From positions 32,411 to 96,410 of the forward strand of contig DATJAO010000027.1 of NCBI GenBank assembly GCA_035516175.1: DNA of 64,000 nt, written 5' to 3'. This DNA comes from Nitrospirota bacterium (GTDB lineage Bacteria; Nitrospirota; UBA9217). The first letter of the stretch is position 1. Each line of letters starts with the position of its first letter. Below, piece by piece: positions 11,608 through 41,964 of the stretch. Made by a program: the position numbers and the translations under genes. The notes below the pieces were generated by a model that saw only the letters and a list, made by a program, of their open reading frames with translations, had not been told where the DNA came from and did no database searches.

Positions 11608-12066
11608 TCATTTTCCCGATGCCTGCCATGCCGCCCTGATAGCTTCCACCCGCTTCCGGTTCACGCCGAAATCCGAATAGCCCAGGCGGGACGCGGACCT
11701 CACCTGGATGAGCTTCGCGTGATCATCGAAAGAGAACTCGACATCGTCGACAAAATGCCAGAGCGCGCTGGCGAATTCCGCATGGAGATAGCTGTTCGTT
11801 TCGGTGATGATTTTAGTCCTCTTCATCTGGAGGATGATCTTTCTAAGACCGGCAATGGCTTCTGGTGTTGTCGAGAAATAGGGGAGGGGCTGAACAGCAT
11901 GGTCTTTATCGGTGCTCTGGCTCGATACGCAGTTCGGAGAAGAAGGACAGGGGGCCAGTTTGCCGTCCCTGACGCCCAGGCTCGCCGGCCGTCCGCCTGT
12001 ACAGCCGATGATTAGTATGCTCGTGGGTAACATAATGGCCAGGGACTTCATGATGATGGCTCGCAT
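11608..12066 (-). CDS. DUF1499 family lipoprotein
   Basis: Lipobox-like ILIIGC; LAPCPSSPNCVSSQ, FVDDVEF, RSASRLGYSDFGVNRKRVEAIR. Confidence 0.88.
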   Translation of the reverse strand: MRAIIMKSLAIMLPTSILIIGCTGGRPASLGVRDGKLAPCPSSPNCVSSQSTDKDHAVQPLPYFSTTPEAIAGLRKIILQMKRTKIITETNSYLHAEFASALWHFVDDVEFSFDDHAKLIQVRSASRLGYSDFGVNRKRVEAIRAAWQASGK

Positions 12067-12213
12067 AAATGATGTTTATTCCTCTTCGGTTATGTCAATG
12101 TTTCTATTATAACATATTATCAATTCGCACCATAAATCCTCGATCATCAGGCTGGAGAGGATGTCAACAGACATTTCAGATCTGACATCAATACTTATAC
12201 TCGCCGCCGGAAC

Positions 12214-12322
12214 AAAAAAGCCGGGTTACCTTTTTGATTGTTCGGCAGCCCGGCTGTCCCCACAGCAGTGGGATCCGTACCTTTCAACCCTCTCTTCGCG
12301 AAGGCGTTGTCTCTATCGGGAC
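12214..12322 (-). ncRNA. Candidate GEMM-I (c-di-GMP-I / cGAMP class) riboswitch with overlapping intrinsic terminator
   Basis: Minus strand CGAUAGAGACAACGCCUUC-GCGA-AGAGAGGGUUGAAAGGUACGGAUCCCAC-UGCU-GUGGGGACAGCCGGGCUGCCGAA shows a GNRA-type loop, GAAAG junction and GACAGCCGGGxxGCCGAA 3' end typical of GEMM-I; followed by the complementary GGUAACCCGGC and U6. P2 pairs imperfectly. Confidence 0.6.
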
Positions 12323-12430
12323 AAATCTATTCTTTCGTTTTACAGCACCGGACCCGGGCAATGTTAGGCCGGCGGCATCTCATATATCGTGTGTATTAAG
12401 TCTCTAAGAGAGGATGAGGGTTCATCGTAA

Positions 12431-12869
12431 CTATCTCCATCCACCGAGTATGGCTCCCGTAACCGGCACGCCGACCACAAAACTCCCCCTCTGGACCAGG
12501 AACATTGACCGGACGACGCCATGGTCCTTTCCGCTCTACAGGGCCGCCCCGAGGCTAACGGGGAAGATGAAACCGAGCCGCGCCCAGAACCCGACCTGCA
12601 TCCCCATCCCCTGACATACCGTATACGCGTTGAACTACCTCATAAAGAGGGAGAATACGAAAGCACCCTCAAGGGTCCCCGCGAACTGATCCCGTACTAC
12701 TGACCGACCACCGTCTTCGTCTACTCCTGTTCGACTACGGTCGGATTCTCCCTGACGATGATCTTCCTCCCCAGCCCTCCAAAGAGAAGTTGTGAATGCC
12801 AGATGAAACCTACGATCATGGCGGCAACCGCCGCGATCACCGCGAGTAATGAACACGCGGATGCATCAT
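12431..12869 (-). pseudogene. DUF1761 family membrane protein pseudogene
   Basis: Fragments LLAVIAAVAAMIVGFIWHSQLLFG and QVGFWARLGFIFPVSLGAAL*SGK...GAILGGWR* lie in different frames with internal stops; match DUF1761 N- and C-terminal patterns. Confidence 0.6.
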
Positions 12870-12882
12870 ACCGGCCAGCCCT

Positions 12883-13308
12883 CTATGCTGCCTCGGCTAG
12901 CTTCACGCCGCTTTCCTTCTTCCGGAGATACTCGCGCCACGGTTTCCAGTAATACTTGTCCCAACCTTCGTTCACGTCGTTATAATCGTACTCCGGCACG
13001 TTGACATGTACAAGCTCGATCCTGCCGCCGTCCTTGTCCGGCCAGAAACTGAGGATCAGTGTGGAGTCGACGTCCCCGGGTTTCCAGTCCTTCCCTCGCC
13101 ACGACTGGATGATGATCCGTTTGGGCACAACCTGCAGCGTTTTACCCGTGATCATGCCTCCAAAGGCGCGAAATCTCGACCCTGTTGTCCGGCTGATGGT
13201 AACCGGTCCTCCTGTGATTTCCCCATGGGCCTTCGGGCTCAGATACATGTCAAAGAGCTTTTCAGCAGGCGCAGGAAGTATCATGGTCTGTTGAATTGTT
13301 TTCGGCAT
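12883..13308 (-). CDS. SRPBCC/AHSA1-like domain protein
   Basis: GSRFRAFGG.ITGK.L..VP..IIIQSWR, IELVHVNVP, EGWDKYYWKPW. Confidence 0.85.
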   Translation of the reverse strand: MPKTIQQTMILPAPAEKLFDMYLSPKAHGEITGGPVTISRTTGSRFRAFGGMITGKTLQVVPKRIIIQSWRGKDWKPGDVDSTLILSFWPDKDGGRIELVHVNVPEYDYNDVNEGWDKYYWKPWREYLRKKESGVKLAEAA

Positions 13309-29915: not shown

Positions 29916-30347
29916 CGACTTCCTTCTGGCATATTCAAATTCAGCATAAGAGTAACACCTTGGAAGATGTCATAGTCATACCCTGGTATCTCCTGCTCAA
30001 GAATTTAGTTCCCGCTAGAACACATTCTTGGCAGGAGTTTCTTGTTTTGGGTGGATTATATTTAAATTTTGTTCCTTGCTATGCTGGCCTGATTATCTAT
30101 TCCCTTATTAACATATAACTTCCTCTTTTAAGAAAATTGTCATAGCAATGACATCAAGTTTCATGTGGTATTCTTCAATCAATATGAACCAATGTATGCC
30201 TGTTAGTCATCATTGACATTGCCTGGGATCAGGAATATATTCATGACCATATACAGCACTTGACCTATCTTCTGCTGCAATGGCGCTACATCTGGTTGCA
30301 GCCGCTTAGTGATTGATCGAGAGAACAAAAATAAATGAAAGGTGATC

Positions 30348-31136
30348 ATGGGCAAATTAAACGGGAAAGTGGCGATTGTGACAGGCGGCGGCCGGGGTAT
30401 CGGCAGGGCCATTGCGGAGGGATACGTGCAGGAGGGTTGCCGCGTGGTAGTTACAGCAGCCCGCGAGCGGGAGGAGATAGATTCCTTTGTCTCTGTATGG
30501 GGAAGGGACAAGGCCCTTGCGCTTCTGGCTGATGTTACCGATTACCGCGCCTGCGAAAACGTCACAAGCGAAGCGATTACCCACTTTGGCCGCATTGACG
30601 TGCTCGTGAATAACGCCGGTCGGGGCATGAAATATGTTTCCCCTACCTTCATGACCGAGCCGGCCCGCTTCTGGGAAATAGCTCCCGAAACATGGAAGCT
30701 GGTGATAGATACGAATGTGAACGGCCCCTTCTTAATGGCCCGAGCAGTTGTACTGCACCTGATACGCCAAAAAAATGGGGCGATAATCAATGTGACCATG
30801 AACTACGAGACCATGAAGCGTAGAGGGTTCTCGCCCTACGGCCCATCGAAAGCGGCGCTTGAGTCCGAGACGATCATCTGGGCCCAGGACCTGGAAGGCA
30901 CGGGTATCACAGTGAATGAGATACTCCCCGGCGGCGCCACAGAGACCGGCATGATTCCGTCCGACATTCCTGCCGATATTCGCGCACGCCTGCTCAAGCC
31001 AAAGACTATTGTTCCCGTTGCCGTCTATCTTGCATCTGATGACGGGCGGGGAATCACCGGCAGGCGTCTCATCGCAACGGAATGGTCTCCTGAAAAAGCT
31101 GATGGCGTATTGGCCTCGAAGGGCATCGGTGCATAG
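30348..31136 (+). CDS. Short-chain dehydrogenase/reductase
   Basis: TGGGRGIG, NNAG, YGPSK. Confidence 0.93.
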   Translation: MGKLNGKVAIVTGGGRGIGRAIAEGYVQEGCRVVVTAAREREEIDSFVSVWGRDKALALLADVTDYRACENVTSEAITHFGRIDVLVNNAGRGMKYVSPTFMTEPARFWEIAPETWKLVIDTNVNGPFLMARAVVLHLIRQKNGAIINVTMNYETMKRRGFSPYGPSKAALESETIIWAQDLEGTGITVNEILPGGATETGMIPSDIPADIRARLLKPKTIVPVAVYLASDDGRGITGRRLIATEWSPEKADGVLASKGIGA

Positions 31137-31139
31137 TGG

Positions 31140-31488
31140 ACAGCAGGTTCACTTCGCATAAGCATCCTTACCTGATGCACAATCGGTTTGAATACGCCAT
31201 TAAAAAACATCCAATAATGATGAATGCAAATGGCATTGCCATATATGTGACCTTGCACTCTTTTCCCAGAGCCTCATGCTGGCAGCGCGCCACATCGGCG
31301 TTGATTCAGCCCCGGCAGTGATTCTTGTCGCGCATCCTGACCTGATCCGGAAGGAACTGAAAATTCCGGATGACCTTCAGATAATCATCGGGATAGCTCT
31401 TGGATATGCGGATGCCGCACATTTGCAGAACCAGACCCGAAGTCCCCGGCGGTCCATTCAGGAAGCGGTTACGATTAAGGGAATTTGA
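31140..31488 (+). pseudogene. Nitroreductase family pseudogene (C-terminal part recognisable)
   Basis: FSQSLMLAARHIGVDSAPA...IRKELKIPDDLQIIIGIALGYAD...RSPRR matches the nitroreductase C-terminus; upstream part scrambled or out of frame. Confidence 0.7.
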
Positions 31489-31581
31489 CGTATTCGTACA
31501 AGATCCGTCTATAAGCAAAAAGGCTGATATCGCTCTGCACATATATTGCAGTACTTGTTTCACGCGTAGGAGGCTGAACGT

Positions 31582-32649
31582 ATGTCAAAAGTCATGATCC
31601 ATTCCGCCAGTTATGAGAATGTCCGTCAAGCAGTAGACCGGGCATTTGAACTCTTTCCCATCAACATATCTGGGAAGAAAGTCCTGATCAAGCCCAACGT
31701 GCTCCGAAGCTCGGAAACAAGAGAAGGAATCGTCACTAATCCCGCCATTCTTCGCGCCGTTGTTGAAAAAGTTGAGACAATGGGTCCCGCCTCCCTTATT
31801 GTGGGAGACAATCCAGGCCTTTTCAGTTACGGCGCAAATGAGGAGAGCTTTTCCAAAACGGGCCTGATGGAAGCAGCCAAAGGCCACTATAAAAACATCG
31901 GAAATGATTCCCGGAAGGTCGCCTTCAATTCGAAATACATGCCGTTTGTCAGTATCTCGCGGGATGTGTTGGATGCTGATATTGTCATCAGTCTGCCGAA
32001 ATTCAAAACCCATGGTCTGACAGTTCTGACCGGAGCAATCAAGAACAGTTACGGGTTACTACCCGGCGCTCAGAAAGCCATGTTGCACAAGGCTGCCGGC
32101 AATCCGACAAATTTTAATGAAGTGGTAGTCGAGGTATTCAGGATCAGGGTGCCGGATCTGTTCATTGTCGATGCCGTGGTCGGGATGGAGGGCAATGGAC
32201 CGGCCTCACCTGATCTCAGAAATATCGGCGTGATCCTCGCCTCAGACAATGCTGTTGCCGTTGATTCTGTTATTGCAACGATGATGGGATGCGATCCGGG
32301 GCGACTGCGATTCCTTCAGAAGGCAAAAGAGGTGGGCCTAGGCGACTACGATCTCAATACGATCGAAATCATCGGCGAGTTAAAACGGCTGCCTGATTTT
32401 AAACTTCCCCCGCTGGACGGCGAAGCAATCATGCGCAACGAGGTCATGCAGTCATTGATCCATGGGCGGGCGATCCTTCGCCCTCAGGCGGACGCTGAAA
32501 AGTGTACGAGCTGCGGCACCTGTGTCGATCATTGCCCGGTATCGGCTTTATCCATGGCTGGAAATATCCCTCAGGTGAATGCCGGTATCTGCATTGCATG
32601 CTTTTGCTGCCAGGAGATGTGTCCAGAAAAAGCCATTGTGTTGCGTTGA
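31582..32649 (+). CDS. DUF362 domain protein with C-terminal 2x[4Fe-4S] ferredoxin
   Basis: VLIKPN, ISLPKFKTH..T.LTGAIKN, DAVVGMEGNGP, CTSCGTCVDHCP and CIACFCCQEMCP. Confidence 0.92.
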   Translation: MSKVMIHSASYENVRQAVDRAFELFPINISGKKVLIKPNVLRSSETREGIVTNPAILRAVVEKVETMGPASLIVGDNPGLFSYGANEESFSKTGLMEAAKGHYKNIGNDSRKVAFNSKYMPFVSISRDVLDADIVISLPKFKTHGLTVLTGAIKNSYGLLPGAQKAMLHKAAGNPTNFNEVVVEVFRIRVPDLFIVDAVVGMEGNGPASPDLRNIGVILASDNAVAVDSVIATMMGCDPGRLRFLQKAKEVGLGDYDLNTIEIIGELKRLPDFKLPPLDGEAIMRNEVMQSLIHGRAILRPQADAEKCTSCGTCVDHCPVSALSMAGNIPQVNAGICIACFCCQEMCPEKAIVLR

Positions 32650-33206
32650 ATGCGAGATATATGCGGTTATGAAATGTCTTCAAATTCCTGATGTTATCAA
32701 TGTGCGCTGTAAAATCCCGTCCATCAGGGCGGGGAAGATGTCAATAGGATTGCAAACCGCAATGCAGACCGTCACAATTAATGATATCCCTTCACTGCCC
32801 TTGTTATTGTTCTGACGTGAATATATTCCACTGAAATAAATTAGATTCTCTTGCATGTCACCTCAATGCCTTTGCCAAGCGCTTCAATATGTTTGCCCTC
32901 CGCCACTGAAGCCGTTCACATTATCTTAAATTATTAGGACCGACCCTTGGATGTTCCTGAAGCATGCCCTTTCGGCTTTGCTTTATTCAGTCGTTGTGAG
33001 TGAAGGGCAACTCCGATAGAAGGGCTTTGCCAGTCAATGAAAGCGAAATTTTTGGTACACTGCATCATTTCATCCAGTAGGGGAGAGAGCATCGCGGTAT
33101 TGCTGGTATCCATATGTCCCATAAATATATATAACTATCAGATAATAAATGATATTTATAGCAGAAATAGAAAAATTATAGTGAATAAACAGATATTAAT
33201 TAATAC

Positions 33207-33235
33207 TTGCAACTATGTTGATTATTAGATATAAT
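33207..33235 (+). promoter_or_regulatory. sigma70-like promoter of the marR-dsrE2-tusA operon
   Basis: TTGCAA-17 nt-TATAAT, 33 nt upstream of ATG 33268. Confidence 0.55.
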
Positions 33236-33267
33236 TGCTATTAGAAACAGTTGCTATTGTAAACTAT

Positions 33268-33747
33268 ATGTCGACAATATCTACTACCAATATCGATCTG
33301 TCAAAACGTGTGCCTGTCCTCTTAAAAAAACTGACACATTGTTTTTCAACGACCCAGGCCGACATCTGTCGGCGGTTCGATATTACCGCCGCAGAGGCGT
33401 CCTTGCTTTCGTCCATGGAACCGGGACGGAAGCTCTGCTCCACCGCCTTGATGGAACGGCAGGATCTTTCCAAGGGATGGATCAGCCGCCTTAATGAGTC
33501 ATTGTGCAAAAAAGGATATATCATCAAGAACGAGCACCACGACGACCGGCGGCACAACATCATCGAGCTAACGGAGCGGGGACAGGAGGTCCGGCAGGCG
33601 ATTATCGAGGAGCAGGCAGCCGTATGCCGCCGGGTTCTGGAGCACATCCCGGAGAACGAACGCGCGATGGTCCTCCCGGCCCTCGAACAGCTGGTCCTAG
33701 CCTTGGAACAATACAAGCACGAGGTCGGGAATGCCGACAGCGACTAA
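33268..33747 (+). CDS. MarR family transcriptional regulator
   Basis: LSKGWISRLNESLCKKGYI, DDRRHNIIELTERG winged helix. Confidence 0.88.
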   Translation: MSTISTTNIDLSKRVPVLLKKLTHCFSTTQADICRRFDITAAEASLLSSMEPGRKLCSTALMERQDLSKGWISRLNESLCKKGYIIKNEHHDDRRHNIIELTERGQEVRQAIIEEQAAVCRRVLEHIPENERAMVLPALEQLVLALEQYKHEVGNADSD

Positions 33748-33771
33748 CCAATTTCAAGCACAAAGGAGGGT

Positions 33772-34317
33772 ATGATCATGGGTACGGGACAGGATGTTAT
33801 GGAACAGCCAAAACAAGCAGAGACGAGGTTACCCGCAGTGGAGAACAAGATTTCGATGGTCGTATTTTCAGGAGATCTCGACAAGCTCCTGGCGTCACTG
33901 ATCATCGCCACCGGAGCGGTTGCAATGGGCATGAAGGCCCGCCTCTTTTTCACCTTCTGGGGCACGGCGGCCTTGCGCGATGCCCGGAAGAGCGTGAAAG
34001 GGAAGAACCTAATGTCCAGGATGTTCGGCTTCATGCTGCCGAACGGGGCGCGAAAGGTAAAGCTCTCCAAGATGAACATGGGAGGTATGGGGACCGCCAT
34101 GATGAAGATGCTCATGAAGAAGAAAAAGGTGGCGTCTCTGGAAGAAATGCTGACTCTGGCCGGCCAGATGGGCGTCGAGATCTGCATTTGTGAGATGTCC
34201 ATGGGCCTCATGGGATTCAAGCGGGAGGAGATGATCGACTATCCTCACATGAGCGTATGCGGTGTCGCGGCTTTCCTGGCAGAAGCGGCTACGAGTAGGG
34301 TACAGCTGTTCATTTAA
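33772..34317 (+). CDS. DsrE2/DsrE-like sulfur carrier (DrsE_2 family)
   Basis: SMVVFSGDLDK, LFFTFWG, KLSKMNMGGMG, ICEMSMGLMG with conserved Cys. Confidence 0.88.
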   Translation: MIMGTGQDVMEQPKQAETRLPAVENKISMVVFSGDLDKLLASLIIATGAVAMGMKARLFFTFWGTAALRDARKSVKGKNLMSRMFGFMLPNGARKVKLSKMNMGGMGTAMMKMLMKKKKVASLEEMLTLAGQMGVEICICEMSMGLMGFKREEMIDYPHMSVCGVAAFLAEAATSRVQLFI

Positions 34318-34330
34318 TGGGAGGTGCGTT

Positions 34331-34573
34331 ATGCCGGTCGAACTAAAAGCAGACAAAGTCGTTGATCTGAAGGGATTGCCCTGTCCCATGCCTGTGGTCC
34401 GCATCAGTCAGGAGATCATGACCGTTGATGTAGGTCAGGTGGTCGAGGCCATCACCACCGATCCCGGGTCACTGGCGGACTTTCCCGCTTGGGCCATGAG
34501 CACCGGCCAGGAGATCCTGCAGACCGACCAGGCTGCAGGAGAGATCAGGTTCTATGTGAAACGGGTGAGATAG
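34331..34573 (+). CDS. tusA: TusA/SirA family sulfurtransferase
   Basis: DLKGLPCPMP, TTDPGSLADFPAW; SD GGAGG upstream. Confidence 0.92.
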   Translation: MPVELKADKVVDLKGLPCPMPVVRISQEIMTVDVGQVVEAITTDPGSLADFPAWAMSTGQEILQTDQAAGEIRFYVKRVR

Positions 34574-34582
34574 GACGGATTC

Positions 34583-35356
34583 ATGCGATTTCCTACGAGA
34601 GGAGTGCTGGCCGTGCTCGACAAGATCTACTATGTCATCATGGTGCCCATGGTCTACGCGGCGGTATCTATCTTCGTCATAGGCGTCATCTCTCGAAGCA
34701 TCAGGATCGTTCTGGCGCCGCGTCAGAAAACGACCCTTCAAATCTTTCCGGTGAAACGGCCGGTGTGGTTCCACGCCCTCGTTGACACCTTTCTCCTGCC
34801 GACCGTGAGGACCATACGGCCTGTGATGTGGATCTTCGCCCTGATCTTCCATGGCGCCCTTGTCCTGCTTGTCATAGGACACCTTGAGCTCATCCGTGAG
34901 ATCCGGGCCCTGCAGGCGATCCCGCACCAAGTGTTCCTCGGAGGCGGTCTCGTGGGACTGGCCCTCACGGTGTCCCTGCTATTCTTTCTTTTCAGCCGGT
35001 TTAAGACCCCCTACCGCGAGATCTCCGTCCCCGAGGACTATTTTATCCTGCTGCTCCTGATGCTCACGGTCCTGTCCGGTTCCCACATGGATTGGGCGAA
35101 GTATCTCTCGCCTGCGGGGTTCGACATTCCGGTGTCGGGCTACCGGGAATACCTGTCCAGTCTGTTTACGCTCCACCCCGGCGTGCCTGCCGTCATCGCA
35201 GGATCGCCGCACTATGTGCTCGTTGCCCTGCACATCCTCTTTGCCAATATCTTCCTCCTGTTCTTTCCGTTCAGCAAGATCATGCACACTTTTTTTGCCC
35301 TTCCCCTCAATCTGATCCGACGAGGAGGTCTCCGTGGAGCAAACACTGCACCATGA
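34583..35356 (+). CDS. NarI/DsrM-like diheme cytochrome b membrane subunit
   Basis: Multi-TM; IFHGALVLLVIGH, SHMDW, LHILFANIFLLFFPFSKIMH with candidate heme-ligand His residues. Confidence 0.82.
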   Translation: MRFPTRGVLAVLDKIYYVIMVPMVYAAVSIFVIGVISRSIRIVLAPRQKTTLQIFPVKRPVWFHALVDTFLLPTVRTIRPVMWIFALIFHGALVLLVIGHLELIREIRALQAIPHQVFLGGGLVGLALTVSLLFFLFSRFKTPYREISVPEDYFILLLLMLTVLSGSHMDWAKYLSPAGFDIPVSGYREYLSSLFTLHPGVPAVIAGSPHYVLVALHILFANIFLLFFPFSKIMHTFFALPLNLIRRGGLRGANTAP

Positions 35357-36581
35357 GTTGCTAACGCGATTTGATTCCAAGCTCAACAACGTCATGCGCA
35401 TGTATCTCGACACTTGCGCCCGCTGCGGTGTGTGCATCCAGTCCTGTCACGTCTACGCGTCGATGCCCGAGCTGAAGTATACGGCCGTGTACCGCGCCGA
35501 GGTCATCCGCAAGCTCTTTAAGCGCTATTTCAAGGCTCAGGGAAGGTTCTGGCCGTCTCTTGGAGACAGCGCGAACTTGACCGACGACATGGTGGACACG
35601 ATCTATCAGACGGCTTACAGCTGCACGGGCTGCCGCCGCTGCATGGTCCATTGCCCTTTCGGCATTGACACACAGATGATCATGTCCATTGCCAAACTCC
35701 TGCTCATCAGCGCCGGCCGTGAGCCCAAGGTACTGAGCATGCTGGCGGACATGTCGATTGCCAAGGGCAAGTCGACCACCGAGACGCGCGCCAACTTCGC
35801 CAAGGCCGTCGACCAGCTGCGGGACGAGGTGCTTGCCCAGTGGCGCCAGGCCCACGGAGAGAAGGTTGTACCCCTCGAAGCGCAGGACGCTAACATACTC
35901 TATGTGGCGCTTGCGGGCAAGCACTCCATCGTGCCGGCAGCAGCCATCATGAACGCAGCAGGCGAGGAATGGTCCCTAAGCTACTACGAGGCGGTGAACT
36001 TCGGTGCCTTCGTGGGTAACGCTGAAAAGACCCGCGTAATCGCACTGCGGATCATCGACGAGGCGGTACGTCTGCGGGTGAAGGAAGTGTCCATCTGCGA
36101 GTGCGGGACCGCCTACCGGGTCATGCGTCATATGATGGGTGCGCTGCCGTTCAAGGTGACCAGTTTCATCGAGGTTATTGCCCGGTATCTGCGTGAGGCG
36201 CGGATCAGGCTGGCAAGGGGAAGAATCGCCGGCCGCGTTACATACCACGATCCCTGTCAGCTCGGCCGGAACGGCGGTGTCATCGAGGATCCGCGCTTCA
36301 TCCTCTCATACCTGACCGATGATTTCATCGAGCTTCAGCCCAATCGCGCAGAGAACTGGTGCTGCGGCGGCGGCGGTGGGCTCGTTGCGATCGGAGAAAA
36401 GGATTTCCGCATGAGATCTGCGCGGGTTAAGGCGGAGCAGATCAAGGCAGTATCGCCGGACATCGTATGCACTGCGTGCGAGAACTGTCATACTCAGCTT
36501 TCGGACCTTGTCGGCCACTACAAGATCAACGCCGGCGTCCGTTTCCTGACCGACATGGTAGCGGAATCGCTTCAAGAATAG
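35334..36581 (+). CDS. DsrK/HdrD/TmcB-like (Fe-S)-binding CCG-domain oxidoreductase
   Basis: CARCGVCIQSC and CTGCRRCMVHCP, YHDPCQLGR, WCCGGGGG, CTACENC; overlaps the upstream gene. Confidence 0.88.
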   Translation: MEQTLHHELLTRFDSKLNNVMRMYLDTCARCGVCIQSCHVYASMPELKYTAVYRAEVIRKLFKRYFKAQGRFWPSLGDSANLTDDMVDTIYQTAYSCTGCRRCMVHCPFGIDTQMIMSIAKLLLISAGREPKVLSMLADMSIAKGKSTTETRANFAKAVDQLRDEVLAQWRQAHGEKVVPLEAQDANILYVALAGKHSIVPAAAIMNAAGEEWSLSYYEAVNFGAFVGNAEKTRVIALRIIDEAVRLRVKEVSICECGTAYRVMRHMMGALPFKVTSFIEVIARYLREARIRLARGRIAGRVTYHDPCQLGRNGGVIEDPRFILSYLTDDFIELQPNRAENWCCGGGGGLVAIGEKDFRMRSARVKAEQIKAVSPDIVCTACENCHTQLSDLVGHYKINAGVRFLTDMVAESLQE

Positions 36582-36949
36582 CCTGCTGCTCTGATTTATC
36601 GGAGAGAAGACGATTTAACATCCATTCCAAGGACTAAGTATCTCCTCGCGTTCCTCGCTCTCTCGCGATTCAAGACTACTGATTCACAGCGAGAGTAAAT
36701 AATATCAATTTAATTTAAATAATAACTATAATAATCACTGGTACGTCTTGCTCAATAGTCTCGTCTCGAAGCCCGAATATGTCATAAACGATTATCTTAT
36801 CTAGGCTTAAAACGGCTAATAGGGTTTGACATTGTGTCTTGTCTTTGCCGATGAAGATATGTTAAAATATAAGACTAAGAAAAGGACAGAGAAACATTGT
36901 CTAGCATTGCCACTCTGTTTTTGCACATGTTTTCAGAAAAAGGGACAAA

Positions 36950-37621
36950 ATGCTGATGAAAAGATTTCGCGATGCGTTCCCGAGCCTCCTTGTCCTGGCG
37001 GGTGCCGCTATGCTGATGGCCGCGGGGAGCACGCCTGTCACGCTTTCGCCATACGCTGAGTCCGTAGCGAAAATCATAAAGTTCGACCGTCAGGTGCTTA
37101 TTCTAGTGAAGGAAGAGACCGGGGAAAGCATCCACCGGCTTATCGGCTATGACGAAAAAGGCTATCAGGTCGTCGCTGATGGCATTTCCGTGCCGGTCCC
37201 CGAGGAGAAGACCGACAGCATTCTTGAATCGTTACGGAAAAAACTCACCCGCCTCAAGTATATGGCCTTTGTCGTTGATATAAACGGCGGGATCAAGACA
37301 GACAAGATTGGCGTCATCAAAGGGACCGACCAGTACGACATCCTCAGGGTCATGAATACGAACGGCGACGACTATGATATTTCCAGCCAGGATGTGATTG
37401 AGAGGTTGAAGGAGTGGGAAAAGACCTCTCCCTTCGACATCATTGGTGCGGACAATGACTGGGTGGAAATAGAGTTCAAGACGCTGCCGAAGGACCTCAA
37501 GTCCTTTGCCGAGGAAGTGTATGATTTCAGCCCCGATACGGTTGACCAGGGGCCGGGAAGTACGTCAGAACTGGCGAATGAGATCCAGCAGACCAAAAGA
37601 CTGTTCTTATGGTGGGATTAA
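36950..37621 (+). CDS. DUF4253 domain secreted protein
   Basis: N-terminal signal-like helix; FAEEVYDFSPDTVDQG...LFLWWD terminus. Confidence 0.8.
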   Translation: MLMKRFRDAFPSLLVLAGAAMLMAAGSTPVTLSPYAESVAKIIKFDRQVLILVKEETGESIHRLIGYDEKGYQVVADGISVPVPEEKTDSILESLRKKLTRLKYMAFVVDINGGIKTDKIGVIKGTDQYDILRVMNTNGDDYDISSQDVIERLKEWEKTSPFDIIGADNDWVEIEFKTLPKDLKSFAEEVYDFSPDTVDQGPGSTSELANEIQQTKRLFLWWD

Positions 37622-37687
37622 CAGCCGGAACAATTACAAGAGGGAGAGATACAGCTGGGTGCGGCCTTATATGGAGCCCTAGTGACA

Positions 37688-37720
37688 TAAAAAAAGCAGG
37701 TGGTTTGAAAACCACCTGCT
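37688..37720 (-). terminator. Rho-independent terminator of the Lys-rich small gene
   Basis: AGCAGGTGGTT/AACCACCTGCT inverted repeat with an A-run on + (U-tract on -). Confidence 0.75.
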
Positions 37721-37790
37721 TAACCGCGATCTTGTTTCTGACAAGATAACTTTTCCCGCCTCTGTATAATGAATTGGCGGTATGGGTGAA

Positions 37791-38030
37791 CTACTTGCCT
37801 GCCGGGGCTGCTGGGGCCATCGGGGCGGCTTCTTCCTTCTTAGGAGCCTTCTTAGCTTCCTTCTTGGCCTTCTTCTTTTCCTTCTTGGCCTTCTTCTTTT
37901 CCTTGTGCGTAGCCGGAGCCTTCTCCTCAGCCTTCTTCTCTGGTGCTGGTGCCGGAGTCTCCTGTGCGAATGCAACGCCGAGGGTCAGGGCGAATGCCAT
38001 TGCCGTGAACAATGCGATAAGCTTTTTCAT
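37791..38030 (-). CDS. Small secreted Lys/Ala/Glu-rich protein (acid-shock Asr-like composition)
   Basis: Signal peptide MKKLIALFTAMAFALTLGVAFA-Q, then KEKKKAKKEKKKAKKEAKK; SD GGAGGTG; upstream TTGACA-17-TAGATT; own terminator. Confidence 0.8.
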   Translation of the reverse strand: MKKLIALFTAMAFALTLGVAFAQETPAPAPEKKAEEKAPATHKEKKKAKKEKKKAKKEAKKAPKKEEAAPMAPAAPAGK

Positions 38031-38250
38031 TAGGTTTCACCTCCTTCCATTTTTAAGTTGCGACATAATCTAACAAATTTAACATGCCCTGTCAAGCTTA
38101 AAGATATTAAACTATCATATCATGCAGGCTTAAGATATCTAAGCAGCCTTTCTTGACATAAGTCGGTTAAAGAGATTTTACTATTTAGACACTTGATTTT
38201 TGCAAAAGTTTAATGCAAGCAGAAAAGTCGTGAAATCCGGAGGCTGAACC

Positions 38251-38677
38251 ATGGATATGGCAAATTTTATCGAGCAGATACCACAATTGCCTGCAGTTAA
38301 GGTCCGCGATGTCCTGAATCAAAAAAGTATTGGATAATATAACCTGGTTGATGTGCGCCGGCCTGCAGAGTATGAGAAGGGGCACCTGCCGGGATCACGG
38401 CTGATTCCCTTGGCAGAACTAGCGTCCCGGCTGGGGGAGCTCGATCCCAGGAAACCAATGATCTGCCAACGGAACGCATCCATCATTGAACCGTGAAGCC
38501 CCCACTACAGCCGCAGCAGCGATTTAGTGGCGGGTAGTTCATTCGAATGCGTACGATCTCTACATCAAGATGGAACGATTGGTGAGGAACGATCGTTCGA
38601 AACGGGAATTCAGCCTGCTGGCTGAAGAGGAAAAGCACCTTCTCGTCAGAATGACGTCGCTTAACAAAAAAGCCTGA
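38251..38677 (+). pseudogene. Rhodanese / ferritin-like (rubrerythrin-type) fusion pseudogene
   Basis: MDMANF...G*YNLVDVRRPAEYEKGHLPGSRLIPLAELASRLGELDPRKP (TAA at 38335; truncated before the catalytic loop), then NAYDLYIKM...FSLLAEEEKHL ferritin-like helix. Confidence 0.72.
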
Positions 38678-38849
38678 CGAGGTTTCTCTTGACAACCATA
38701 CCTGAATTGGATAGATTGCCCTTGTAAGCGACGGTCCGGGTCCGATGCGCGGAGCTTGGGACTTGCAGAAGGTACTTTCGCCACGTATCCGTTCTTTCCA
38801 TCAAGGACGGTTTTTTTATTCTTAAAACAAGCATGAGGAGGGATGTGAC

Positions 38850-39248
38850 GTGAAAAAAAGATTGTTCGTGATGGTGGTTGGTCTTGTCTCCATGGGAATG
38901 CTTTTTGGTTGTTCAAAAGGATACGAATCACAGAAGACGGCCGATGATCTCAAGATCACGCTTTCGGTCGACCGCTATCCGCTGGCAAAGGGCGATAACG
39001 CGTTGAGTTTGAAAGTGGTCGATGCGGCCGGAAAAGCGGTGACCGATGCTGCGGTGAATATCCGCTACTTCATGCCGCAGATGCCTGGCATGGCACCCAT
39101 GGACTTTAACACACAGGCTGTCCAAAAGGGCGACCGGTACACATTTTCTGCCAATGTGCCCATGGAAGGCGGATGGAAGGCCGAAGTATCCGTGGTGCGC
39201 CAGAGTAAACCCGCCTCCACAGCTACGTTCAATCTTGATGCCCGTTGA
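38850..39248 (+). CDS. FixH/YtkA-like lipoprotein
   Basis: Lipobox LFGC; GDNALSLKVVDAAGKAVTDA, MPQMPGMAPM, PMEGGW. Confidence 0.8.
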   Translation: MKKRLFVMVVGLVSMGMLFGCSKGYESQKTADDLKITLSVDRYPLAKGDNALSLKVVDAAGKAVTDAAVNIRYFMPQMPGMAPMDFNTQAVQKGDRYTFSANVPMEGGWKAEVSVVRQSKPASTATFNLDAR

Positions 39249-39316
39249 TGAGAGGCAGTCGTCAGGAGTCAGATGAGCACCTTCTGGATTCATCGTTAAT
39301 GTCCTGACTTTCAGGT

Positions 39317-40426
39317 ATGATTAAATCATCGCTCAGGCGTATGAAGGGCTGGCGGGTGTATGTGCTCGCGGGCATGCTCACGCTGATCACGCTAATCCAT
39401 TACCTGGCCGGCGGGGTGCGGGCGGGCATGCTCCACGGCATCCTCGGTCACCTCTACATCGTACCGATCATTCTCGGCGCCTATTGGTACGGAATCAAGG
39501 GGGGCGTGACCGTTTCCATAGCCTCGACCGCCCTCTTTTCCCCCCATCTGCTTCTGCACTGGAAGGACCCGTTCCTGGATGTTTATAATTTCGTTGAGCT
39601 GTTCCTCTTCCTCCTCATTGGCGGCGTTACGGGTGTTCTTAGCCAGATGGAACGCAATCAGCGCCTACGCTACGAAAATGCCCTGGTCAGGCTGGATGAG
39701 TCTCACCGGAAATTGAAGGAACAGACGGACATCCTGTTCCAGACCGAGGAGCAGCTGAGAAGGGCGGACCGTCTTTCCGCGCTCGGCGAACTGTCCGCGG
39801 GCATGGCGCATGAGATACGAAACCCCCTCGGCTCCATCAAGGGCGCGGTGGAGATCCTAAAGGACGATTACCGGCCCGATGAGGCCAAGTACGAGTTCAT
39901 CCAGATCCTCCAGAAAGAGACGGACCGTCTGAATCAAATCGTACAGGAATTCCTGGGGTTCGCCCGGCCCAAGCAGCCCGAGTTCCAATATGTTGATTTG
40001 AACGAGGCAATCGAGTCCGTGCTTACCCTCACGGCGCAGGAAGCAAAGAAGGCAGGGGTGCAAGTTGTAAAGAAGCTCGACTCGTCCATCGGCAGACGCA
40101 GCCTCGATGCGGGATTGCTCAAGCAGGCGTTCCTGAACCTGATCCTGAACGCGATCCAGGCCATGCCGGGCGGCGGCGTGCTGACCGTCGAGAGCGGCCT
40201 CAGGGAAGGCGCTGTAGTGGTGAAGATCGCGGACACCGGCGTCGGCATCTCCGACGAGAACCGGAAAAAGCTTTTTAGCCCCTTTTTCACCACCAAGAAG
40301 TACGGCACGGGGCTTGGCCTCGCCATCACGTACCGTATCGTCCAGAACCACCGCGGTACGGTCGATGTGAAGAGCGAGCCGGGCAAGGGTGCCGTTTTTT
40401 CGGTAAAGATCCCTATCCAAGATTGA
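39317..40426 (+). CDS. Membrane sensor histidine kinase (His-rich TM sensor)
   Basis: Four TM segments; AGMAHEIRNPL, NLILNAIQAM, PFFTTK..GTGLGL. Confidence 0.92.
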   Translation: MIKSSLRRMKGWRVYVLAGMLTLITLIHYLAGGVRAGMLHGILGHLYIVPIILGAYWYGIKGGVTVSIASTALFSPHLLLHWKDPFLDVYNFVELFLFLLIGGVTGVLSQMERNQRLRYENALVRLDESHRKLKEQTDILFQTEEQLRRADRLSALGELSAGMAHEIRNPLGSIKGAVEILKDDYRPDEAKYEFIQILQKETDRLNQIVQEFLGFARPKQPEFQYVDLNEAIESVLTLTAQEAKKAGVQVVKKLDSSIGRRSLDAGLLKQAFLNLILNAIQAMPGGGVLTVESGLREGAVVVKIADTGVGISDENRKKLFSPFFTTKKYGTGLGLAITYRIVQNHRGTVDVKSEPGKGAVFSVKIPIQD

Positions 40427-40611
40427 CATTGGAACGCGGAGGTGTGGGGACACGGGTAAAGAAGAGGGCGCTGATTGAAATGTCATGAACCAACTGAATC
40501 GTTTTTGAATTCGGTTTTACATTCGTCTTCTCGATTGATCTGCGTCGAAATTATTTTTTGATTCTTTATTATTATCAATGCCTCATATTCTCTGTTGCTA
40601 AATATTGAATC

Positions 40612-41964
<1,353 letters not shown>

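Follow-up and report, generated by a model that had tools for sequence, protein, structure and literature searches.

Complexes of the DsrMK and HdrDE type, in which a cytochrome b is joined to an iron-sulfur (Fe-S) subunit, have so far been tied to DsrC or to CoM-S-S-CoB. What would such a complex act upon when it is encoded beside two sulfur carriers, TusA and a DsrE2-like protein? The question is raised by a locus in a Nitrospirota bacterium (UBA9217; assembly GCA_035516175.1, contig DATJAO010000027.1, positions 32,411-96,410 of the forward strand); the window, as the term is used here, is this whole analysed stretch of 64,000 nucleotides (nt). Between positions 33235 and 36581 of the window are five open reading frames (ORFs), all on the + strand, in the order marR, dsrE2-like, tusA, a NarI/DsrM-type cytochrome b gene and a DsrK/HdrD-type Fe-S gene. 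The cassette is real and conserved. The function proposed from its sequence is that of a portable, self-contained quinone-linked reductase acting on sulfane sulfur that TusA and the DsrE2-like protein would carry, with the substrate (whether persulfide, trisulfide or thiosulfonate) and the direction both putative; we give this reading a probability of about one half, and judge it worth an experiment. The features of the locus are as follows.

33207 to 33235, + strand: sigma-70-like promoter, TTGCAA-17-TATAAT, 10/12
33268 to 33747, + strand: MarR-family regulator, 159 amino acids; the ORF opens at TTG 33235 (170 amino acids), likely start ATG 33268
33772 to 34317, + strand: DsrE2-like sulfur carrier, 181 amino acids; PF13686, E=4.9e-46 (157 bits); Cys140 in CEMSM
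34331 to 34573, + strand: TusA sulfur carrier, 80 amino acids; PF01206, E=6.8e-20; Cys18 in CPMP
34583 to 35356, + strand: NarI/DsrM/HdrE-type dihaem cytochrome b anchor, 257 amino acids; PF02665, E=1.9e-11, 44.4 bits
35334 to 36581, + strand: DsrK/TmcB/HmcF-type Fe-S subunit, 415 amino acids; two CX2CX2CX3C motifs, ECG(T) Cys257 and one full CCG motif

The likely starts at ATG 33268 (MarR), ATG 34331 (TusA) and GTG 35334 (Fe-S subunit) were chosen from family alignments. Within 33207-36581 the genes are separated by 24, 13, 9 and -23 nt, the last being a 23-nt overlap of the cytochrome b and Fe-S genes. The tightly packed, partly overlapping operon described in an initial annotation of this DNA is thus borne out by the ORFs, their domains and these gaps.

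Conservation and distribution of the cassette

The survey covered 83 loci from at least five phyla: Desulfobacterota, Spirochaetota, Nitrospirota, Bacteroidota (Cytophagia), Eisenbacteria, and metagenome-assembled genomes (MAGs) labelled Clostridiaceae or Pseudomonadota. Adjacent to the Fe-S gene, and in the same order, the NarI-like gene was found in 82 of the 83, tusA in 78 and the dsrE2-like gene in 77, most of the misses falling at contig ends. Eight further, divergent spirochaete orthologs (46-51% identity) all keep the four-gene order. An arrangement shared by 77-82 of 83 independent loci goes far beyond chance. The linkage to tusA and dsrE2, for which the initial annotation had suggested a synteny survey and whose loss elsewhere it had named as telling against its reading, is conserved almost without exception (77-78/83 and 8/8).

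The residues expected to matter are conserved to a similar degree, those of the cofactor and active sites being invariant or near-invariant over about 80 orthologous loci. Cys18 of TusA (CPMP) is present in 99% of 77 orthologs and Cys140 of the DsrE2-like protein in 99% of 76; a second Cys in the latter reaches only 58%. Only these two carriers accompany the Fe-S/cytochrome b enzyme throughout.

Relatives of the Fe-S protein number in the thousands and share about 60% identity from one phylum to another; the closest loci are those of Nitrospirota MAGs (94-97% protein identity). The cassette itself is carried by 4 of 301 Nitrospirota (about 1%), 22 of 401 Desulfobacterota (about 5%) and 26 of 301 Spirochaetota (about 9%) species genomes. 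Three of the four Nitrospirota carriers belong to the genus of the window and the fourth to another genus of the same family. In the tree described below, the Fe-S protein of the window groups with Cytophagia and "Pseudomonadota" MAG sequences, which, taken with the patchy distribution, indicates that the cassette was laterally acquired in this lineage and that the module is laterally mobile. The hosts are all labelled as anaerobic lineages, and cultured carriers include Desulfomonile tiedjei and Desulfacinum infernum.

Some neighbours recur within certain groups of hosts. In 22 of the 83 loci, those of Eisenbacteria and Cytophagia and 20 of 54 Desulfobacterota-type loci, the Fe-S gene is directly followed, on its own strand, by a gene for a FadL/TodX-type outer-membrane channel (PF03349; e.g., L010:7307-8788, L014:7314-8405, L032:7424-8725). 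Such a channel could import hydrophobic sulfur species, e.g., S8 or an organic polysulfane. Genes for a flavodoxin, an Mrp/NUBPL Fe-S carrier, a class-V aminotransferase (cysteine desulfurase-like) and ThiI are found 1-5 kb downstream in 4-6 of 20 spirochaete loci (e.g., L016:7284-10702, L018:10944-12107).

An enzyme related to, but distinct from, DsrMK

Members of the DsrK/TmcB/HmcF superfamily are defined by two CX2CX2CX3C motifs, one CXnCCGXnCX2C motif and a conserved ECG Cys (PMC10861901). The Fe-S subunit has the full set, in alignment with DsrK, TmcB and HmcF, and all 14 of the Cys concerned (C28/31/34/38, C97/100/103/107, C257, C308, C343/344, C382 and C385) are 100% conserved in 84 sequences. 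Cys257 aligns with the (T/G)ECGH Cys of reference proteins from the same genomes, which has been proposed as probably catalytic in DsrK, HmcF and TmcB (PMC10861901); the cassette proteins read ECGT. The last CCG position is Cys in the cassette proteins and Asp in all six true DsrKs sampled. Although DsrK is the best NCBIfam match (NF045796, 237 bits), the cut-off of 400 bits for that equivalog is not reached, nor are those of TmcB (208 vs 735 bits) and HmcF (193 vs 750 bits). Pfam places a single CCG domain at residues 302-389, the second motif being reduced to the ECG Cys, and the protein is not an HdrD of the methanogen type, which has two CCG motifs (PMC10861901).

The initial annotation had proposed a phylogeny against DsrK, TmcB and HmcF, and had named clustering with lactate or glycolate dehydrogenase Fe-S subunits as the outcome that would tell against it. 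In an IQ-TREE analysis (LG+C20) of 44 sequences, the 28 cassette proteins included formed one clade with support of 96/97. The references, classed by NCBIfam, were six DsrK, two TmcB, one HmcF and three HmcF-like proteins, two unnamed paralogs and a TfrB/LdhH-like outgroup, with no HdrD among them. The cassette clade lies apart from DsrK (100/100), TmcB (100/100) and the HmcF group, and not inside the DsrK clade; the backbone among these groups is unresolved. The TfrB/LdhH-like paralog of the window genome is the long-branch outgroup, and scores against the dehydrogenase models are low (LdhH 60, GlpC 47 and GlcF 33 bits; at most 86 bits on TfrB/LdhH/GlpC/GlcF, vs 237 on DsrK). Model scores and tree together rule out a CCG enzyme of the lactate, glycolate or glycerol-3-P dehydrogenase type.

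The loci L108 and L109 (genomes G040 and G036) hold members of another unnamed DsrK/HmcF/TmcB-like clade, distinct from that of the cassette, which score about 240 bits on all three models and have PCGH replacing ECGH. A NarI-like gene is upstream in L108.

Modelled with AlphaFold2 (pLDDT 88.9), the Fe-S subunit has its best structural matches in Mycobacterium smegmatis EtfD (PDB 9ojn, TMq 0.64), LutA and HdrB. The predicted fold matches the HdrB/EtfD class and was counted in favor of the reductase reading; the PDB copy searched yielded no structure of DsrK for comparison.

The membrane subunit belongs to the NarI/DsrM/HdrE type, with 44.4 bits on PF02665 against a threshold of 22.9, five predicted transmembrane (TM) helices and four axial-type His, on TM2 and TM5. 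Five histidines are invariant in the family. Among these, His90, His100, His217 and His235 align with His56, His66, His187 and His205 of E. coli NarI (family profile vs 1Q16_C, E=5e-8), which are the haem b ligands in that structure. NarI was reached with the family profile; a single-sequence search of the PDB gave a spurious rhodopsin match only. With 45 bits against a cut-off of 300 on NF038037, the subunit is not a DsrM equivalog.

Both carriers likewise belong to their families without being the canonical forms. TusA is a member by domain, having 71.1 bits on PF01206 (threshold 28.6) and the Cys-Pro-X-Pro site. It falls below the cut-off of the E. coli-type TusA equivalog (39 vs 78 bits), and the models for TusA and for the selenium-related YedF score about equal on it. 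The other carrier had been called DsrE2-type; membership in PF13686 stands, but with 67.5 bits against a cut-off of 210 on NF047629 it is not the canonical DsrE2 equivalog, and its orthologs in D. tiedjei and Treponemataceae give 66-67 bits. A strong TM segment was looked for in the DsrE2-like protein and none was found.

A second, canonical tusA-dsrE2 pair is present in the same genome, beside dnaA-dnaN-gyrB (contig C62:77183-77956; L122:5183-5956, minus strand). Its DsrE2 paralog scores 209.8 bits on NF047629, and a DsrE/TusC-like gene lies 1.4 kb from the pair.

The locus had been described as lacking dsrABC. This is true of the locus itself but not of the genome: the assembly (2.49 Mb, 86% complete) has dsrA (569 bits), dsrB, a dsrN-like gene, dsrC (166 bits) and dsrMKJOP (DsrK 725 bits) on contig C72, and holds two DsrC-family genes in all. 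Other carriers present a different picture. No dsrA was found in 27 of the 48 cassette-bearing genomes searched, among them every one of the 20 Spirochaetota, the Cytophagia and Clostridiaceae MAGs, and two "Pseudomonadota" MAGs. A DsrC/TusE homolog was also missing from 25 of the 27, again including all 20 Spirochaetota, in searches whose positive controls were found. The uniformity of the spirochaete pattern (20/20) means that MAG incompleteness cannot explain the absence of Dsr. The spirochaete, Cytophagia and Clostridiaceae genomes that were tested have no DsrK-like protein other than that of the cassette, and at none of the 83 loci is the cassette adjacent to dsrC. Co-occurrence with dsrC and dsrAB therefore does not place the protein with DsrK, and DsrC is not the general substrate of the cassette enzyme, since 25 genomes have the cassette without dsrA and without DsrC/TusE. 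The independence from DsrC suggested in the initial annotation is supported by the same genomes.

Comparison with known systems places the cassette close to several and within none. Like the DsrMK core of DsrMKJOP, a menaquinol:DsrC-trisulfide oxidoreductase (PMC10861901), it combines a dihaem NarI-type cytochrome b with a cytoplasmic subunit having two [4Fe-4S] motifs, one CCG motif and the ECG Cys. Unlike DsrMK, it forms a separate clade (237 bits against a cut-off of 400, ECGT in place of ECGH, Cys in place of Asp), has no dsrJOP, is never beside dsrC, is tied to TusA and the DsrE2-like protein, and occurs without DsrAB/DsrC. TmcB/TmcC and HmcF/HmcE of Desulfovibrio-type sulfate reducers share the five-Cys CCG motif, the ECG Cys and a NarI-type membrane partner, but the cassette lacks their periplasmic cytochrome c subunits, scores 208 and 193 bits against their cut-offs of 735 and 750, and is again a separate clade. 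HdrDE, the methanophenazine:CoM-S-S-CoB oxidoreductase, also joins a cytochrome b to a CCG Fe-S subunit and reduces a disulfide of two carriers, so that the TusA/DsrE2 pair could take the part of CoM and CoB; the cassette protein differs in having one CCG motif, and the comparison is one of motifs, as the tree holds no HdrD sequence.

In type II sHdr systems (sHdrB3, EMO), tusA and DsrE-type genes stand beside HdrB/HdrD-like proteins, and sHdrB3 binds a single non-cubane cluster, as the one CCG motif of the cassette protein would suggest for it. Mycobacterial EtfD is the best structural match. In contrast to both, the cassette has no sHdrA, LbpA or EtfAB, its cytochrome b and Fe-S parts are separate proteins, and its hosts are anaerobes that are not known as sulfur oxidisers. 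The rhd-tusA-dsrE2 relay of sulfur oxidisers and the YTD cluster (YedE-TusA-DsrEFH type II; PMC13293266) resemble it in pairing TusA with a carrier of the DsrE family in cytoplasmic sulfane-sulfur traffic. The cassette lacks their YedE/YeeE, DsrF and DsrH, has another DsrE2 subfamily (67 vs 210 bits), and its relay would end in a dedicated membrane redox enzyme, not in DsrC. Genes for sHdrA, LbpA, EtfAB, YedE and DsrEFH type II were found neither among the ORFs at 30000-40500 of the window nor among the conserved neighbours in the 83 loci; identity with a YTD cluster is ruled out by the lack of YedE and of its DsrEFH type II. By its sequence the cassette is thus related to DsrMK but distinct from it: it falls outside DsrK, DsrM, HdrD and DsrE2, and the partner proteins that define sHdr, YTD, Tmc and Hmc are missing from it. 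The accessible full-text literature yielded no description of it; subscription reviews may mention it.

Sulfane sulfur on TusA and DsrE2 as the proposed substrate

In the proposed mechanism the dihaem cytochrome b would exchange electrons with the membrane quinone pool, and these would pass by way of two [4Fe-4S] clusters to a single non-cubane cluster and the adjacent catalytic Cys of the DsrK-like subunit. There the sulfane sulfur on Cys18 of TusA and Cys140 of the DsrE2-like protein would be processed, either as a persulfide or as a TusA-S(n)-DsrE2 bridge between the two proteins, comparable to the DsrC trisulfide or to CoM-S-S-CoB. The likeliest direction is from quinol to sulfur, with release of H2S and regeneration of the carrier thiols, and the outcome would be sulfane-sulfur respiration or the anaerobic detoxification of S0/polysulfide. 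The reductive direction is favored because the hosts are anaerobes, many of which have no onward route for an oxidised product. As for the quinone, the MenA model (TIGR00751) does not discriminate among Dsr-less hosts; it also gives no match in the window genome or in Desulfacinum infernum, where the futalosine route is presumably taken. A precedent is found in DsrMK, which reduces the DsrC trisulfide with menaquinol; electron transfer involving the non-cubane cluster of DsrMKJOP has been shown with menadiol (PMC10861901).

Several points weigh against this reading. TusA and the DsrE2-like protein could be accessory and not the substrates, and the cysteine desulfurase and ThiI neighbours in 6 of 20 spirochaete loci hint at biosynthetic sulfur traffic. 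The direction is also open to objection, in that menaquinol has little reducing power relative to polysulfide or persulfide couples, and EtfD, the best structural match, feeds electrons into menaquinone. Finally, organisms of the rDsr type run DsrMK oxidatively (PMC13293266).

The last three of these points favor a serious rival, which is nevertheless unlikely: the same complex might run in reverse, oxidising carrier sulfane sulfur or thiols (e.g., to a TusA-S-S(n)-DsrE2 bridge) and delivering the electrons to the quinone pool, as a cytoplasmic, SQR-like entry for sulfide/sulfane-sulfur oxidation or disproportionation. EMO as well as EtfD is a quinone-reducing relative, and the transfer from thiol or persulfide to menaquinone is thermodynamically downhill. 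It fits less well with hosts that are mostly fermentative or sulfate-reducing anaerobes and with a cassette that shows no linkage to sulfite-forming enzymes and is present in genomes without DsrAB, in which an oxidised trisulfide would have no obvious onward path. The sHdr, LbpA and Etf genes of the oxidative systems are likewise not found at the window locus.

A biosynthetic or housekeeping role appears improbable. Here the enzyme would mobilise sulfide, or resolve persulfides, from TusA loaded by a cysteine desulfurase, for Fe-S, thiamine or thio-nucleoside synthesis, or it would handle another chalcogen, e.g., selenium. The downstream genes of the spirochaete loci point this way, as do the near-equal scores of the cassette TusA on the TusA and YedF models. 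Such neighbours are confined to one lineage, where the separating flavodoxin and Mrp genes lie on the opposite strand; the patchy carriage in all three phyla counted is unlike that of housekeeping genes, and control by MarR or ArsR suggests a stress- or substrate-induced function.

Least probable is a spare DsrMK, in which the complex would be an auxiliary DsrC-trisulfide/disulfide reductase for the Dsr pathway of this Nitrospirota, with TusA and DsrE2 feeding DsrC: the dsrAB, two DsrC-family genes and dsrMKJOP of this genome and the DsrK top match of the Fe-S subunit speak for it, but it is rejected as the general function by the 25 carriers without dsrA and DsrC/TusE, and the separate clade, the Cys where true DsrKs have Asp, and the lack of dsrC beside the cassette at all 83 loci tell against it as well.

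The quinone-linked reductase of carrier-bound sulfane sulfur can be taken further, in a form that we regard as doubtful. TusA and the DsrE2-like protein might together be a two-protein analogue of DsrC, forming through the single Cys of each an intermolecular trisulfide/polysulfide that the DsrK-like enzyme would cleave with quinol. The result would be a portable, Dsr-independent, energy-linked respiration of S0/polysulfide, fed by FadL in many Desulfobacterota. If this were so, fermentative Spirochaetota and others would gain a membrane-bound sulfur reductase, and the FadL-type channel beside the cassette in many Desulfobacterota would import hydrophobic S8 or organic polysulfanes for it.

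Should the reductase reading be correct, the DsrMK/HdrDE class would gain a third substrate system, one that relies on the universal carriers TusA and DsrE. The cassette would also be a candidate marker for cytoplasmic sulfane-sulfur reduction/oxidation in organisms without dsrAB, psr or sHdr. Marker genes are the basis on which sulfur cycling is deduced for MAGs from peat, soil and sediment, and such deductions would change with a module that had gone unrecognised. The hypothesis is directly testable: cultured carriers exist, and assays are established for DsrMKJOP and for sulfur transfer by TusA/DsrE.

Regulator, promoter and neighbouring genes

The regulator of the window scores 25.9 bits on PF13463 (cut-off 22.2) and remains below the cut-off of MarR_2 (23.1 vs 27 bits). 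Directly upstream of the cassettes, 40 of 49 same-strand ORFs match PF12802 (best E=5e-13). When all neighbouring ORFs were clustered, a MarR orthologous group was found in this position, on the same strand, in 39 of the 83 loci: 36 of 54 Desulfobacterota-type loci, both Nitrospirota loci and the Cytophagia locus, but none of the 20 Spirochaetota loci, which have ArsR or no regulator. An ArsR-type gene replaces marR in a few loci. The family consensus bears a QCC and an RC motif; Cys36 of the window protein (numbering of the 170-residue ORF) aligns with the first Cys of QCC, and 39 of 46 members have a Cys there. The MarR and ArsR families both include known thiol and persulfide sensors. The cassette regulators, being thiol-bearing MarR or ArsR types, may thus sense sulfur, and were counted in favor of the reductase reading. 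For the Nitrospirota lineage it is proposed that the MarR, which has the conserved N-terminal Cys, acts as a repressor transcribed together with the cassette and probably lifts its repression of the operon under reactive sulfur. The control by a Cys-containing MarR put forward in the initial annotation accordingly finds its upstream gene and its conserved Cys, but in some lineages only.

The promoter sequence TTGCAA-17-TATAAT is kept in L012, the closest relative (97% identical). An overlapping short palindrome and repeated TTGCTAT/TTGCAACTAT motifs make 33207-33235 a candidate MarR operator. No terminator-like site was found within 500 nt 3' of the Fe-S gene.

Other genes of the window, encoding SDR, DUF362 and DUF4253 proteins, are outside the conserved context of the cassette in the 83 loci. 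The upstream DUF362 Fe-S gene that had been singled out is present in the window, but it is syntenic in none of the 83 loci elsewhere. A 79-residue Lys/Ala/Pro-rich ORF with a signal-peptide-like start (37791-38030, minus strand) has no family match and is kept in L012 (8442-8678).

The rhodanese fossil reported downstream does exist, on the + strand at about 38240-38470, with an in-frame TAA; minus-strand ORFs there have no Pfam match. It is part of a pseudogene (38240-38700, + strand) of a decayed rhodanese and ferritin-like fusion, which reads SIG*YNL here and SIGEYNL in L012, and lacks about 480 bp found in L012:8912-9739; the L012 copy is itself broken into two ORFs. Exactly at the deletion junction lies a short dispersed repeat (38463-38543) of about 60-70 nt with hairpin potential, which has five copies in the genome (contigs C27, C66, C31, C52 and C28) and one inverted copy in L012:3161-3241. 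Three genes follow 3' of the pseudogene: a YtkA/FixH-like lipoprotein gene (38850-39248), an ORF that by reading of its sequence resembles a histidine kinase (39317-40426), and an ORF (40612-41964) whose L012 counterpart (11683-13035) is a sigma-54 response regulator. This block, 38850-41964, is collinear with L012.

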